From the NCBI GenBank assembly GCA_020845475.1, contig JADLFN010000046.1, positions 12,997-76,996 of the forward strand: a DNA stretch of 64,000 nucleotides. The letters run 5' to 3'. The DNA comes from Planctomycetota bacterium (GTDB taxonomy: Bacteria; Planctomycetota; UBA8742; UBA2392). The notes below the pieces were generated by a model that saw only the letters and a program-made list of their open reading frames with translations, did not search any database and was not told where the DNA came from. The position numbers and the translations under genes are program-made. Shown piece after piece: positions 2,510-64,000 of the stretch (its first letter is position 1; each line of letters starts with the position of its first letter).

Positions 2510-3097
2510 TCACGCAGCGAGCGCGCCGTAGCGCGTTCGCAACGCGACCGGCTGGCGCGCAAGCACGGCCTGGATTGACTCTGAGTCATTCAACTCCAGC
2601 GCGGCTACGAACTCGCGGCGATCAGCCTCGCTCAATTGCGGCAGGAGCTCGCGCAGCAGTGCGTCATCGCGTTTGGCGGTTTGCGCGGGCAGGCCTTCCG
2701 TCAGGGCGTTGAGCAGCGTGCGCAGCTCGTCATCGTTGGCGGGCTCGGAGGCGTTGATGACCTCGTTGATCTCGAGCCGGGCCTGCATCATGATTTCTTC
2801 TTTGCGGTCGATGTAGCGCAGCATCAAGTTGACGTGCAGGCGCTGCTCGGGCACGGAAACGAGCGGGCGCTCGCCCTTTTCACGCCATGTCACTTTCGGG
2901 TTTTCACGCAGGCGGCGCGAGTCATCCTCGCGGCAGCGCTTGGCGCCGTCGAGGGTGTCATCGACGATGGCGATGAGTTTTTCCAGCGCGCGCCCGCCGC
3001 GCTGCAGGTAAAGCTTTTCGACCGCGCCCTGGATTATCTGCTTGCGCCGCACCGCACGCAGGAGGTCGCGGCCTTCACGAAGTTGCGAGTTGGACAT
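2510..3097 (-). CDS. hypothetical protein, 195 aa, charged and helical
   Basis: Long ORF with ordinary composition, convergent with the GGDEF gene. No motif recognised. Confidence 0.55.
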   Translation of the reverse strand: MSNSQLREGRDLLRAVRRKQIIQGAVEKLYLQRGGRALEKLIAIVDDTLDGAKRCREDDSRRLRENPKVTWREKGERPLVSVPEQRLHVNLMLRYIDRKEEIMMQARLEINEVINASEPANDDELRTLLNALTEGLPAQTAKRDDALLRELLPQLSEADRREFVAALELNDSESIQAVLARQPVALRTRYGALAA

Positions 3098-3150: not shown

Positions 3151-3163
3151 GGGGACTGTCCCC
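3151..3163. repeat. solitary GGGGACTGTCCCC palindrome
   Basis: Exact 13-nt palindrome in the 3098-3735 spacer. The same unit occurs four times inside aroA (62175-62281). Confidence 0.85.
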
Positions 3164-9505: not shown

Positions 9506-10001
9506 GACCAATAATCTCCGCGTGCCATTGTAACAATGAAACGGCCCGAAGTGCGCCCAGTTCGTTTTCGTACGCCTTCGCTTGTTCAACGGCGAACGCA
9601 TGCAGCTTCGCAACAAAATTGCTCTCTTCCGCACTAACGATGTACTCCGCACCCATTGATGCTGCAATCAAGGCATGCAAAGCATCTGCTTCATCTAGTG
9701 AAACTCGCTTGGCGAGCACGATTGCGGGCTCCAAGAGATCGTCGAAGTTGAACATGGTCCGATAAACATGACGGGGTTGTGGAATTACGCGTTCAATTCT
9801 CTTGCGGACAAGCTCATTCCTGAATCCCATTATCTCGCGATCCACCAAACCGGAGTGGACCAAACGCAACATGCCCAGCCTTACGAATCCAAGTAGGCTC
9901 TGGGCTTCGGCGGCCAGTCTACGTTGGTGCGCGTCACCGCCTCGAGAGGCGGCGTAACCGTAAACGTTGCTATCAAGATAGAAAATCGAACCCAGCGGCA
10001 T
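9498..10001 (-). CDS. PIN-domain protein (VapC-like nuclease fold)
   Basis: IFYLDSNVY (first acidic motif), ..DREI.., EADALHALIAASMGAEYIVSAEESNF (PIN C-terminal motifs, with the last Asp replaced by Glu). Region visibly more AT-rich than its neighbours. Confidence 0.65.
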   Translation of the reverse strand: MPLGSIFYLDSNVYGYAASRGGDAHQRRLAAEAQSLLGFVRLGMLRLVHSGLVDREIMGFRNELVRKRIERVIPQPRHVYRTMFNFDDLLEPAIVLAKRVSLDEADALHALIAASMGAEYIVSAEESNFVAKLHAFAVEQAKAYENELGALRAVSLLQWHAEIIGHG

Positions 10002-32361: not shown

Positions 32362-32386
32362 GCCAGTGTTATAGCCGAGAACGACG

Positions 32387-32412
32387 CAGGGGCGACAACT
32401 ATGTCGCCCCTG
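32387..32412. repeat. CAGGGGCGACA-acta-TGTCGCCCCTG palindrome in the rpoD 3' spacer (possible terminator)
   Basis: 11-bp perfect arms with a 4-nt loop, 25 nt after the rpoD stop. Same arm sequence as the 28-nt palindrome inside aroA (61939-61966). Confidence 0.8.
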
Positions 32413-32436
32413 CGGTGGACGTATTCCTGCCTGCGG

Positions 32437-34398
<1,962 letters not shown>

Positions 34399-41885: not shown

Positions 41886-41931
41886 GCTTTTCTCCTGCAT
41901 CGCATCGAGCTTCATGCGCTAGAATCAGCGC

Positions 41932-42411
41932 ATGAAGCTCGATCAACGTCAGGTGCGCAACATTGTCGCAGGCGGCGTGCTGCTGCTGCTTGTGATCCTG
42001 GTGATGTGGTGGTTTGGCGTGTTCGAGGCCAAGGGCAGCGACGAAGACCAGATCCGCCGCGTAACCGAGCATGCGCAGTCAGAATTCAACGACCACGACT
42101 GGGACGATCTGCTGCAATATTGTCTCGTCGAGCCAGACACACCGCAGCGCCGCAAGCAATGGGTCGATAGCGTACCGCGCCAGGCCAACGGCATCCGCAT
42201 CATGAGCATCATGCACACGCAGCCATTGAGCGTGCCCGTGGGCGCCGTCACCTACGAAAGTGAGATCAGCATCGTGGCGCAGCCGATCATCGGCGCCACG
42301 CGCATCGAAGTGCCCAAGGGCAAGCTCTATTACGTGAAGAAGAACGGCGTGTGGCTGATTGACCTGGAAAAGAGCGCGCCCAACTTCGGCGTGCCCGTGC
42401 CGCCGCGCTAA
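41932..42411 (+). CDS. membrane-anchored hypothetical protein (159 aa)
   Basis: N-terminal TM segment IVAGGVLLLLVILVMWWFGVF followed by a small globular domain. No motif recognised. Confidence 0.6.
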   Translation: MKLDQRQVRNIVAGGVLLLLVILVMWWFGVFEAKGSDEDQIRRVTEHAQSEFNDHDWDDLLQYCLVEPDTPQRRKQWVDSVPRQANGIRIMSIMHTQPLSVPVGAVTYESEISIVAQPIIGATRIEVPKGKLYYVKKNGVWLIDLEKSAPNFGVPVPPR

Positions 42412-60466: not shown

Positions 60467-61792
60467 TTGACCACCCTCGGAGCTGTAATGGAAGAAGCCC
60501 CAACCATGGCCGATCCTCAGGAAACCCGGGACGGGCGCGGCTTGGGCGTTGTCGATTTCGGCGTGTTGGCCGTGCGCAACGGCCTGTTGACCAACGAGCA
60601 GCTTGATCAGTGCCGCGTCAAACAGCAGGCCAGCGCCAATCTGGGCCACAACCTGACGCTGCAGCAGATTGTGCTCAACGAAAAGTTGATGTCGCCCGAC
60701 GACGTGCGCCGCGTCGAGAAAGCGCACGAGCAGCTCACGCGCGACCGCGAGAGCAAGAAGGACCTCAAGTTCAAGGGCTACGAGATCATCTCCACGCTGG
60801 GCGAAGGCGGCCTGGGCAGCGTGTTCAAGGCACGCCAGATTTCCATGAATCGCCTTGTTGCGCTCAAGGTGCTGCACAAGCAGTGGATTTCAGATGACGA
60901 GTTCCGCAAGCGCTTCGTGCTCGAGGCGCGCATTGTCGGCAAGCTCTCGCACCAGAACTTGATCCAGGTTTACGACGTCGGCAAAGAGGGCGACTACTAC
61001 TACTTCTCGATGGAGTACGTGGAAGGCCGCACCGTTGAAGAACTGATCCACGATTCTCCGCGCCGCCAGATGGAAGTGGGTCGCGCTGTTGAAATCATCA
61101 TCCAGGTTGTGCGCGCGATCCGTTATTACAAAGACTTCGACATCGTGCACCGCGACATCAAGCCCAGCAACGTCATGGTCACCAAGACCGGCGTCGTCAA
61201 ACTGGGCGACTTCGGCTTTGTGAAAAGCAAGCTCGACAAAGAGCTCGGCTTCGAAGGCATGGTGCTGGGCACGCCCGACTACATCGCGCCCGAGCAGGCC
61301 ATGGGCAAAGAGGGCGTGGATTATCGCGCCGACGTGTACTCGCTCGGCGCAACGTTCTATCACATGCTCACAGGCCGGCCGATGTACGACGGCACACCCT
61401 CAAGGGTCATGCTAGCCCACACGCGCGATGCCATGCCCGACCCGCGCACTTTCAGGCCCAGCCTCGGCGATGATGTGCTCGCGGTGCTTAAGCGATTGCT
61501 CGCCAAGAACCCTGACGACCGCTACGCCAACCTCGACAACCTCTTCGCCGACCTCGAAGCCCTGCTGGAACGCAACCGCCCCAAGCAGGTCGCCAAGATC
61601 GAAATCGGCAAAAGCAGCGTACTGCGCGCGCTCAAGATCGAGCAATCACGCCAAGGCGAAATGCAAGGCCGCGTAAAATCACTGGAAGAACGCGCACAAG
61701 CTGCGCTCGCCCAGCGCAACATGGCGCTGGCCGCAGCGGCGTTCATGGCCCTGGTGGCGTTGATTTGTTTCGTGTTGATCTTTGTGACGTGA
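60467..61792 (+). CDS. Ser/Thr protein kinase with an N-terminal GspE-N/MshEN-like motif and a C-terminal TM anchor
   Basis: GEGGLGSVFKA...ALKVL (ATP site), HRDIKPSNVMV, DFGF, APEQ. C-terminal hydrophobic helix AAAAFMALVALICFVLIFV. The start could also be an internal Met (MEEAP or MADPQ). Confidence 0.9.
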   Translation: MTTLGAVMEEAPTMADPQETRDGRGLGVVDFGVLAVRNGLLTNEQLDQCRVKQQASANLGHNLTLQQIVLNEKLMSPDDVRRVEKAHEQLTRDRESKKDLKFKGYEIISTLGEGGLGSVFKARQISMNRLVALKVLHKQWISDDEFRKRFVLEARIVGKLSHQNLIQVYDVGKEGDYYYFSMEYVEGRTVEELIHDSPRRQMEVGRAVEIIIQVVRAIRYYKDFDIVHRDIKPSNVMVTKTGVVKLGDFGFVKSKLDKELGFEGMVLGTPDYIAPEQAMGKEGVDYRADVYSLGATFYHMLTGRPMYDGTPSRVMLAHTRDAMPDPRTFRPSLGDDVLAVLKRLLAKNPDDRYANLDNLFADLEALLERNRPKQVAKIEIGKSSVLRALKIEQSRQGEMQGRVKSLEERAQAALAQRNMALAAAAFMALVALICFVLIFVT

Positions 61793-63179
61793 TCTTGTCC
61801 CAGTATTCCCAAAACCCCGGGAAGCTCTTGGTGACAACCTCGGGATGCTCGATCTTCAGCGGCGTTATTAATCCCGCGATGGCGAAACTCATGGCCATGC
61901 GGTGGTCCTCGTAAGTCTTGTTCAGGGGCGGGCGCCTTGTAGGGGCGACATATATGTCGCCCCTACCATCGATCTCCAGCCAGTCGGCGCCCGAACGGGT
62001 TGTCACGCCCAGTTTCGACAGCTCTTTGCAGAGTGCCGCGATGCGGTCGGTTTCCTTCACACGCAGCGTGGAAAGCCCCGTGAGCCGCGATGTGCCTTGC
62101 GCAAACGCGCACACCAAGGCCAGCGTCTGCGCGCAGTCGGGCATGGCGGACATGTCGGCTTCGATGGCACGCAAGGGGATTGTCCCCGCGTTTGGGGACT
62201 GTCCCCGTCTCGCGATTGAGCGCCGATGCGCATTCGTGATTTCTCGAACTGCGGGGACAGTCCCCTGCGGGGACAGTCCCCGAACACCCAACCCGTTCGG
62301 AAACTCTAGCACCTCGCAGCCCATGCGCTCTAACACATCCACGAAACGCACGTCGCCTTGAATATCTTGACGCGTCAAGCCATCGATCACGCACGTTGAG
62401 CCGCTGACCGCAGCCGCGCCCCAGAAGTAACTGGCCGCCGTGGCGTCGGGCGGGCATTCGTAGCGCTCGCAGCCGTAGGTTCCCGGCTTGACCACAAATC
62501 GCCGGTAGCCCTCGCGCTTGATGCACGAATCCGGCAGACCAAAAGCGCGCATCACGTTGAGCGTGATATCGACGTAGGGCTTGCTCACCAGTTCACCGCG
62601 AACTTCGATCGTGACGCCCATGCTCACCATGGGCGCCACGAGCAATAACGCCGAGAGAAACTGGCTCGAGACTTCGCCACTGAGCAAGCATGTGCCGCCG
62701 CGCAAACTTGCGCCCTCGATTTCGAGGGGCACGCAACCCGGCTTGCCTCTTTCGGTGATCTTGGCGCCCAGTTGCCGCAGCGCCGCAATCAAATCGCCCA
62801 TCGGCCGCTCGCGCATGCGCTTGTTGCCGTCGAGTATGAACCGCCCCGGCGTCACGCACAGAAGCGCGCAAGCGAAGCGAGTCGCCGTGCCAGCCGCGCC
62901 GGTGAAAATCGAAGCACGGCCTTCGCGGGCCGTGGCCTTGGGCCTGGCCGGCGGCTTGAGCTCCACATTCGCCCCGCGACCACGCACGCTCCAGCCCAGA
63001 TCCGCCAGCACATTGAGCATCAACGCTGTGTCATCGCCGGGCGAAAGATTCGAGAGAGAGCAAGGCCGGCCCGCCAAAGCCGCGCACACCAGCGCGCGAT
63101 TGGCAAAACTCTTCGACCCGGGCAGCGACAGCCGCACGTCAAAGGGTTGAGTGATGGGAGTGAGCGCGCGCGATTTCAT
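61743..63179 (-). CDS. aroA: 3-phosphoshikimate 1-carboxyvinyltransferase (EPSP synthase) carrying palindromic in-frame insertions
   Basis: LPGSKSFANRAL, ..MRERPMGDLI.., ..LRVKETDRIAAL.., ..YEDHRMAMSFA... The frame is intact across the repeat-derived segments at 62175-62276 and 61939-61966. Confidence 0.93.
   Translation of the reverse strand: MKSRALTPITQPFDVRLSLPGSKSFANRALVCAALAGRPCSLSNLSPGDDTALMLNVLADLGWSVRGRGANVELKPPARPKATAREGRASIFTGAAGTATRFACALLCVTPGRFILDGNKRMRERPMGDLIAALRQLGAKITERGKPGCVPLEIEGASLRGGTCLLSGEVSSQFLSALLLVAPMVSMGVTIEVRGELVSKPYVDITLNVMRAFGLPDSCIKREGYRRFVVKPGTYGCERYECPPDATAASYFWGAAAVSGSTCVIDGLTRQDIQGDVRFVDVLERMGCEVLEFPNGLGVRGLSPQGTVPAVREITNAHRRSIARRGQSPNAGTIPLRAIEADMSAMPDCAQTLALVCAFAQGTSRLTGLSTLRVKETDRIAALCKELSKLGVTTRSGADWLEIDGRGDIYVAPTRRPPLNKTYEDHRMAMSFAIAGLITPLKIEHPEVVTKSFPGFWEYWDKITSQRSTRNKSTPPGP
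61939..61966. repeat. perfect 28-nt palindrome GTAGGGGCGACATATATGTCGCCCCTAC inside aroA
   Basis: The first 14 nt are the exact reverse complement of the last 14 nt. Encodes part of GRGDIYVAPTRR in a loop that is longer than the corresponding E. coli AroA segment as I recall it. Confidence 0.9.
62175..62281. repeat. composite element of four GGGGA(C/T)(A/T)GTCCCC palindromes inside aroA
   Basis: ggggattgtcccc 62175-62187, ggggactgtcccc 62194-62206, ggggacagtcccc 62253-62265 and 62269-62281. Translated in frame as LSPQGTVPAVREITNAHRRSIARRGQSPNAGTIP. Confidence 0.9.
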
Positions 63180-63191
63180 GTTGGACGCGGC

Positions 63192-64000
63192 CTAGGCCAG
63201 CTCTGCCAGCTTCAGGTAGTTGGCGACGCACAATTCGGCCAGGCGCTCGCCATCGGCTTCCTTGATATCCGCGCCGAAGCTGATGCGGATGCAGCCCTGC
63301 GCGTCTTCCCATGAAAGCCCCATGGCACGCAAGACGTGGCTCGGGTCGGTTTCTCCAGGCGCGCAGGCGCTGCCAAGGCCCACGCAAAAACCCTGCTCGC
63401 CAAGCTCGATGCCCAGCGCCTGGCCCTCGATGCCAATGAAACTGACATTGCTGATGTTGGGCAGGCGCGGCGCACCCTCGCCGTTAACGCGGATTTTCCC
63501 GCCCAGCTTTTTCTTGAGCGTGGCTTCCAGCGCGTCGCGGATCTTGGCCACGCGCGGCCAGACTTTCTCGCGCTCGGCTTCCGCCAGCTCGAGGGCCAGC
63601 GTGATGCCGGCCTGTCCGGAAATGTCCTCTGTGCCGGCGCGATAGCCCCACTCCTGCGGGCCGCCCACGATCTGCGGCTCCAACCGATTGGTCATTTCGT
63701 TGTACAGCAGGCCCGTGCCGCGCGGGCCGCCGAACTTCGCACCCGCCAGCGAGAGCAGATCGCAGCCCATCTCGCGCGGCTTGATGGGTAGCTTGCCAAA
63801 GCCCTGCACGGCGTCGCAATGGAACTTCGCGCCGGCAGCGTGCGCAACCTTCGCGATCTCGCTGACCGGCTGGATCACGCCCGTTTCGTTGTTGGCAAGC
63901 ATGATGCTGACGAGCGCCGTCTTCTCCCCCACCAATTTGCGCAGCGCATTGAAATCGACGACGCCCTGCGGCGTCACCGGCGCAAACTTCACCTTGAAAC
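63192..64000 (-). CDS. cysteine desulfurase (NifS/IscS-like class V aminotransferase), C-terminal part; gene continues beyond the window end
   Basis: ..LANNETGVIQP.., ..FHCDAVQGFGK.., ..GSACAPGETDPSHVLRAMG (active-site Cys loop). The PLP-Lys region reads LAGAKFGGPRGTG rather than the usual SGHK. Confidence 0.85.
   Translation of the reverse strand, partial: FKVKFAPVTPQGVVDFNALRKLVGEKTALVSIMLANNETGVIQPVSEIAKVAHAAGAKFHCDAVQGFGKLPIKPREMGCDLLSLAGAKFGGPRGTGLLYNEMTNRLEPQIVGGPQEWGYRAGTEDISGQAGITLALELAEAEREKVWPRVAKIRDALEATLKKKLGGKIRVNGEGAPRLPNISNVSFIGIEGQALGIELGEQGFCVGLGSACAPGETDPSHVLRAMGLSWEDAQGCIRISFGADIKEADGERLAELCVANYLKLAELA

Follow-up and report, generated by a model that had tools for sequence, protein, structure and literature searches.

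Small palindromic repeats of bacterial genomes are usually regarded as intergenic. The closest described systems are the Rickettsia palindromic elements (RPEs; Ogata et al. 2000, 2002, as summarized in PMC10969869), the classic in-frame palindromic elements of housekeeping genes; repetitive extragenic palindromic sequences (REPs) of the GTAG/CGTC type, which lie inside genes in several species, including Opitutus terrae of the Planctomycetes-Verrucomicrobia-Chlamydiae (PVC) group, and whose dimers encode 20-30 residues (Di Nocera et al. [quoted passage not shown] Here we compare with these a 107-nt palindromic segment inside aroA, the gene for class I 5-enolpyruvylshikimate-3-phosphate (EPSP) synthase, in a 64,000-nt stretch of a Planctomycetota metagenome-assembled genome (MAG), referred to throughout as the window (GenBank assembly GCA_020845475.1, contig JADLFN010000046.1). 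We consider the segment probably, at roughly 0.75, a non-autonomous REP/REPIN-like palindromic repeat, comparable to the RPEs, that is translated with its host gene and tolerated by the enzyme. A sequence-only reading of the window had already proposed a REP- or MITE-like element that landed in a surface loop and preserved the frame, and this proposal is now supported by lineage restriction, polymorphism among relatives, the hairpin, the predicted loop and the wide occurrence of the same architecture. The host gene, the parts of the element (at a position we call site B) and a related solitary copy are as follows.

61743..63179, minus strand: aroA, class I EPSP synthase of 478 aa, host of the insert, identified by its open reading frame (ORF), Pfam and PDB matches and catalytic motifs
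62175..62281, minus strand: whole element of 107 nt, two palindromes, 46-nt core, two palindromes, from pattern matches and fold
62175..62276, minus strand: codons for the 34 extra loop residues (AroA 302-335), peptide LSPQGTVPAVREITNAHRRSIARRGQSPNAGTIP
62175..62187: outer copy differing at one base, GGGGATTGTCCCC (read on the coding strand, GGGGACAATCCCC), encoding GTIP
62194..62206: inner copy GGGGACTGTCCCC (GGGGACAGTCCCC on the coding strand), encoding GQSP
62207..62252, minus strand: core of 46 nt, unalignable with orthologous cores (25 to ~90 nt)
62253..62265: inner copy GGGGACAGTCCCC (GGGGACTGTCCCC on the coding strand), encoding GTVP
62269..62281: outer copy GGGGACAGTCCCC (GGGGACTGTCCCC on the coding strand), encoding GLSP
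3151..3163: solitary copy in non-coding DNA, GGGGACTGTCCCC, placed 54 nt upstream of an ORF's ATG (2510..3097, minus strand)

The sequence-only reading counted four palindromes in aroA, two pairs separated by a 46-nt core; that arrangement stands, with three of the copies exact and the fourth, GGGGATTGTCCCC at 62175-62187, an imperfect palindrome one mismatch away from the pattern. This imperfection had been missed, as had two further palindrome-bearing variable sites in the gene and the low-copy state of the repeat around aroA, whereas the single non-coding copy that was reported at 3151-3163 proves to be an exact match, so that the palindrome does occur outside aroA. Exact matches to GGGGACWGTCCCC start in the window at 62194, 62253, 62269 and 3151, against 0.01 matches expected by shuffling, and none of 100 shuffles reached four. 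Because the two doublets are reverse complements of each other, the segment folds as one long hairpin, with a minimum free energy of -73.8 kcal/mol (z -5.8) as RNA and a fold energy of -38.3 (z -4.9) as DNA; its complementary ends, 29-32 nt long, constitute terminal inverted repeats. Because the hairpin lacks a T-run it is not an intrinsic terminator, and an Rfam scan of 61400-63400 returned nothing relevant. Read directly, the 13-nt palindrome contains stop triplets in none of its six frames, which give GDSP/GDCP, GTVP and GQSP/GLSP, that is, Gly-x-x-Pro in all.

The host gene is, judged by its sequence, functional. Its product matches PF00275 (EPSP_synthase) with E 4.9e-98, the best solved relatives in PDB are E. 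coli EPSP synthase structures (E 6e-83), the class I catalytic motifs are all present, and substitutions among orthologues fall mostly at third codon positions, indicating that the gene is under purifying selection. An assembly artefact was considered and ruled out: the identical element is found in an independent assembly, of a strain with 99.3% identity (GCA_030834465.1), and related alleles are found in NCBI, ENA, JGI and Logan assemblies.

The insert does comprise residues 302-335 (LSPQGTVPAVREITNAHRRSIARRGQSPNAGTIP), as first read, and the alignment to E. coli EPSP synthase does break where 34 extra residues had been placed, exactly between RG and (E)LNAID (query 290/336 versus E. coli 287/301). 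The figure of 34 is slightly high as a net gain, which is ~32 residues relative to E. coli, 32 codons relative to two insert-free relatives (L003 and L004, below) and 30 relative to an outgroup (L147), some of the loop's own codons having been replaced. In an AlphaFold2 model built with 109 homologues (mean pLDDT 91, pTM 0.90), strands 296-300 and 340-342 flank a coil formed by residues 301-335, in which pLDDT drops below 50 at 307-328; the insert, which is rich in Gly, Pro, Ser and Arg, is thus predicted to form a disordered surface loop between two beta strands, in agreement with the surface loop suggested from the sequence alone. Tryptic peptides expected of a translated insert include GLSPQGTVPAVR and GQSPNAGTIPLR, whereas a protein without it would have a junction peptide GVRG-LRAIEADMSAMPDCAQT.

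Comparison with relatives reveals an allelic series at this position. We fetched eight close orthologues (L001-L008; 75-85% protein identity to the window AroA by BLASTP, gaps included), two further relatives (L147, L148) and a more distant Planctomycetota locus (L149), and all 11 loci are syntenic with the window. The loop at site B measures 3-7 residues in 101 of the 109 AroA homologues and is longer in eight: 28-49 aa in P0001, P0002, P0004 and P0005, 19 in the decayed P0008, 9 in P0009, and 17-18 in P0019 and P0038, which carry a different palindrome. The 34-aa segment is, on this alignment, lineage-specific, orthologues across the phylum being without it. The alleles at site B are these.

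Window: two-plus-two copies, 46-nt core
L001: two-plus-two copies, 25-nt core
L002 and L005: two-plus-two copies, core of ~90 nt
L006: two copies only, as if shortened by deletion
L007: element in degenerate condition
L148: remnant, probably of a decayed element (RGLFQSGIGPA versus RGLSPQGTVPA)
L008: different, hairpin-rich insert
L003, L004 and L147: empty

The aroA genes of L001 and L006 are 98% identical and carry different alleles at site B, and the empty L003 and L004, the latter the nearest relative of the window, are each nested among occupied lineages, which implies that the element was lost or that recombination exchanged alleles. Seven alleles depart from the empty-site length, every one of them by a multiple of three (+96, +75, +141, +135, +6, +102 and +105 nt), and all are stop-free.

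These lengths bear on an alternative raised by the sequence-only reading, removal or bypass of the segment at the RNA or protein level. Such a segment could be an intron-like RNA, an intein-like peptide or the object of a translational bypass, and the mature enzyme would then be without the 34 residues. A strong hairpin with GGA codons on both sides does loosely recall the bypass of T4 gene 60, but removal would not need every allele to stay in frame and free of stops, and it is for this reason the least likely of the rival explanations, one we hold to be extremely improbable. None of the candidate take-off codons is followed by a stop, nothing in Rfam matches, and 34 aa are far too short for an intein, the only domain detected being EPSP synthase (PF00275) and no splicing domain; the predicted fold, moreover, accommodates the loop.

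What is conserved in the occupied alleles is the pair of arms. These are 94-98% identical between alleles, compared with 67-76% at third codon positions, and in two alleles they have changed in pairs (GGGGACTGTACCC/GGGTACAGTCCCC in L001, GTGGACTGTCCCC/GGGGACAGTCCAC in L007), such that the inner arms stay complementary while each unit's own symmetry is broken. The arms appear to be maintained by concerted evolution that depends on the hairpin. The window and the other alleles of the same palindrome type (L001, L002, L005, L006, L007) form hairpins with z from -5.6 to -8.9, and the empty and decayed sequences form no strong hairpin. Just downstream of site B, L002, L006 and L007 bear a further palindrome copy, where the native strand AIEADMS has become SAGTVPCD; the native DNA under AIEADMS (GCCGACATGTCC) is itself palindrome-like, and this copy may reflect a conversion into similar native sequence. 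The strand replaced in these three loci contains an Asp that 90% or more of the 109 homologues conserve.

The short N-termini of P0012 and P0013 were examined as possible signs of a frame-breaking insert and rejected. L007 has an in-frame ATG at 9842, its start having been miscalled; in L008 the part of aroA that codes for the conserved N-terminus extends in frame upstream of the called start, an in-frame start codon was not located there, and an ATG at 9832 is out of frame with the conserved N-terminus. The upstream regions of both loci have features of their own: L008:9404-9875, between an aminotransferase gene and aroA, holds an extra 77-aa ORF and a G-rich stretch (ggggggggtggggtgggg), and the spacer upstream of aroA in L007 contains a long inverted repeat (L007:9775-9835; GGAGCTAGGGCCTCCGGCC...GGCCGGAGGCCCTAGCTCC), a further hairpin repeat type in the clade.

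Site B is one of several positions in aroA that carry palindromes. In site A, after GLTRQ, L004 and L008 have an in-frame insert of 45-51 nt (VEGSGGARESELRE...) with the hairpin GGGCTCCGGTGGAGCCC (L004:8495-8511, L008:10651-10667), which is also present in P0011 and absent in the window. Site C holds a member of a second repeat family. The window contains two features of the site-C type.

61939..61966: site C, perfect 28-nt palindrome GTAGGGGCGACATATATGTCGCCCCTAC of the second repeat family, translated as the loop segment GDIYVAPT
32385..32414: another site-C family member, CGCAGGGGCGACAACTATGTCGCCCCTGCG, in the intergenic gap that separates the stop codon of a sigma-70-like gene (32437..34398, minus strand) from the following gene's start

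The site-C palindrome starts with GTAG and ends with CTAC. L005 has GTAAGGGCGCAGCATGCTGCGCCCCTAC there, with other inner bases and the pairing kept, and another copy of the family at L005:42-69, and other orthologues have unrelated sequence at site C. In length the loop does not exceed that of other Planctomycetota, which indicates replacement and not net insertion. In the more distant L149 (Planctomycetota JADJRK01) a doublet of a different palindrome, GGGGTCWGACCCC, lies in the site-B loop, with a one-mismatch copy at site C, so that each palindrome has colonised these loops independently. Across the orthologous loci all palindrome copies sit in aroA, and ~15 neighbouring orthologous genes have no indel of 10 or more residues; aroA is, on these alignments, a local hot spot for palindromic inserts, with the site-B loop hit repeatedly. 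In the AroA gene of L149 (L149:10001-11371) a fourth position (RALESRGGAPRDRGRGVHATN) is also occupied, by the insertion of another inverted repeat that is rich in GC (GTCGCGGGGCG...CGCCCCGCGAC).

Arms more conserved than synonymous sites, compensatory arm changes in two alleles and very stable stems of at least 29 bp are also what would be left by a cis-acting hairpin selected within aroA and retained for its function, whether as mRNA structure (for stability, for RNase III cleavage or for pausing of translation) or as a set of operators bound by a palindrome-recognising regulator; so are the unlike palindromes that two lineages have in the same pair of AroA loops, the ~15 neighbours without comparable indels, and the copy at 3151, which stands at operator distance from a gene start. 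We nevertheless regard such a role as unlikely. Relatives lack the element (L003, L004) or carry it in decay (L148, L007), its core is unconstrained in length and sequence, it is no terminator, and the same architecture recurs in unrelated genes and intergenic DNA; hairpin-directed repair, furthermore, can yield concerted inverted repeats without selection.

Scanning one genome per species for pairs of copies within 31 nt gave at least 120 loci in many phyla, with PVC groups well represented alongside Coriobacteriia, Actinomycetes, Acidobacteriota, Prevotella and others. Flanking sequence usually lengthens the stem at these doublets, and no alignment to the window was obtained for any of the listed loci. 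The two-plus-two arrangement of L027, from another Planctomycetota MAG, has stops in all frames and is thus non-coding and intergenic; its outer ends read GTA-GGGG...CCCC-TAC. A metagenome scan for the doublet-core-copy pattern gave at least 120 contigs, and among the matches listed four-copy elements are commonest (spacings of, for example, 4, 27 and 4) and none is aroA. Copies lying in frame were assigned by Pfam to genes for a MiaB-like enzyme, methionyl-tRNA synthetase (MetRS), a class I tRNA synthetase, peptidase U32, AcrB, CobQ, a GT4 glycosyltransferase, RsmF, FolP, two FolC/Mur-type ligases, an FGE-sulfatase-type enzyme, a polysaccharide synthesis enzyme, Mfd, two radical SAM enzymes and a GTPase. 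In the MetRS case, alignment with a solved MetRS leaves a gap opposite the segment. One MiaB-like radical SAM gene, from an Omnitrophota MAG of 40% G+C (L031:4037-5377), has three separate in-frame doublets.

The notion of a unique, universal 13-mer was tempered by controls on viral contigs, where doublets of the AC type occur at 4 loci, of the TC type at 14 and of the GT type at 2, and those of the CA, AG, TG and CT types at none. The AC and TC types, which differ by a paired A:T to T:A change, look favoured, although the numbers are small. A literature search with the literal sequence recovered only primer matches of the NF-kB type and nothing on bacteria. A broader reading, tentative and on balance doubtful, would take GGGG(A/T)CWG(A/T)CCCC palindromes as one cross-phylum hairpin class pre-adapted to coding DNA, on the basis that all frames read Gly-x-x-Pro and the AC type is stop-free in every frame; it covers jointly the class itself, repeated loop colonisation, hairpin-based upkeep of the arms, conversion into native sequence and dedicated mobilisation. 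Were it true, the class would repeatedly colonise the same tolerant loops of AroA, FolP, FolC, MetRS, Mfd and other conserved enzymes, copying or repair through the hairpin would keep the arms complementary, and spread could proceed by conversion, as in the change from AIEADMS to SAGTVPCD; the class, having dedicated mobilisation and not being many unrelated look-alike families, would then be a source of loop diversity in essential proteins.

The history we favour for the window is that of a palindromic repeat consisting of two inverted doublets of the 13-nt palindrome around a variable spacer, which would have entered the codons of an AroA beta-hairpin turn in an ancestor of this Planctomycetota clade. 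It would since have been transcribed and translated as a 34-residue disordered surface loop that the enzyme tolerates, and two properties may explain its persistence: the palindrome is stop-free in six frames, with a Gly-x-x-Pro that suits a loop, and in an essential gene only copies with a length that is a multiple of three would survive. The nucleic-acid hairpin, and not the peptide, would be what is maintained, paired changes keeping the arms while the core is free to vary; later evolution would have included recombination between repeats (down to two copies), decay and allele exchange between strains. Mobilisation is presumably in trans, for which a single-strand transposase of the HUH/RAYT type is the obvious candidate.

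This conclusion must be tempered by several observations that weigh against it. A transposase or RAYT was not found, the window ORFs not having been screened for Y1 transposases, and around 120 palindrome loci all-against-all BLASTP identified no shared neighbour family beyond generic ones. Within ~73 kb of this strain there are four copies in aroA and one outside, and the ~20-kb flanks of the orthologues contain none; in the DNA read, the repeat is therefore low-copy around aroA and not visibly abundant. The presence of the 13-mer in many phyla may reflect convergence of unrelated families rather than one family, and that the insert is translated with aroA is something we infer. At the insertion itself no target-site duplication was found, the flanks GTGC and TTGC showing no direct repeats; native codons are replaced and not duplicated relative to the empty sites of L003, L004 and L147, so that the occupied site does not equal the empty site plus the element; and the cores of orthologous elements are unalignable, unlike those of typical MITE copies.

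The missing target-site duplication and the differing cores would also be expected had the palindromes arisen in place, by template switching or foldback repair of a native quasi-palindrome, with no mobile element involved. The native site does resemble half a palindrome (AGGGGGTCC in L147, GCCGACATGTCC just downstream), and in L002, L006 and L007 the downstream native stretch has in fact turned into a palindrome copy. Yet the same 13-mer in the same two-plus-two arrangement is met at more than 120 unrelated loci, and the 13-mer once elsewhere in the window, and an independent in-place origin at each is hard to credit; we judge this explanation very unlikely, and retain that of an inserted, translated palindromic repeat.

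Two features of the surroundings are recorded here. A Ser/Thr protein kinase gene (60467..61792, plus strand) is convergent with aroA, their 3' ends overlapping by 50 nt (61743-61792), and this overlap is preserved in several orthologous loci. The longest perfect stem in the window lies elsewhere, at 41904-41943 (ATCGAGCTTCATGCGCTAGAATCAGCGCATGAAGCTCGAT), with 17 bp and a 6-nt loop.

At this locus a palindromic repeat lives within a well-understood and essential enzyme, and close relatives supply the whole series of alleles, from intact through shortened and decayed to empty. The series bears on the entry and exit of such elements, on the concerted evolution of hairpin arms and on the tolerance of an extra loop, and independent colonisation by two palindromes, together with in-frame copies in repair proteins, folate enzymes and tRNA synthetases from other phyla, suggests that the phenomenon is wider than the Rickettsia case. 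There are practical consequences as well: such inserts inflate apparent protein divergence and can mislead gene callers (two orthologues here had miscalled starts), and AroA is the target of glyphosate, which makes loop variants easy to test functionally.

The resemblance to the RPEs, as these are outlined in the summary cited above, lies in short palindromes that sit in frame in unrelated housekeeping genes, are translated (here presumably) into additional stretches compatible with the fold and occur in non-coding DNA as well; a frame-kept, fold-compatible insertion is found here too, in a Planctomycetota MAG. The phylum differs, however, and against an RPE of ~100-150 bp with a family-specific peptide, in the terms of that summary, stand doublets of a 13-nt palindrome with a variable core, in a loop that is polymorphic among close relatives and has been colonised by a second palindrome type. 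With the GTAG/CGTC REPs the element shares units and dimers wholly within ORFs of known proteins, some genes being hit more than once, and the site-C palindrome resembles GTAG REPs in its two ends. At site B the units in the window have no clear unpaired GTAG tag, and the inner units are followed by GTC (CCCC-GTC), so that CGTC appears at the inner copies only if a stem base is counted; the centre is a single base instead of a loop of 2-20 nt, and no RAYT gene was seen.

REPs and REPINs are matched in their short GC-rich palindromes (three exact copies and one near copy in aroA, one outside) and, as in REPINs, two inverted units and a spacer fold as one hairpin with conserved arms and variable spacer, non-autonomous and without target-site duplication; here, unlike in REPINs, each arm is a doublet of a self-complementary 13-mer and many copies are intragenic. 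MITEs are matched in the terminal inverted repeats, and not in a target-site duplication or in conserved internal sequence from a parent insertion sequence, the cores being different. ERIC/RU are similar in their open frames and occasional in-frame fusion to host genes, and dissimilar in that only the short palindromic arms are conserved in the element described here. The element works like an RPE, a REP or a REPIN, its assignment to one of these families not being established; it is of an established kind, that of intragenic palindromic repeats, and what is new is the family and the host.

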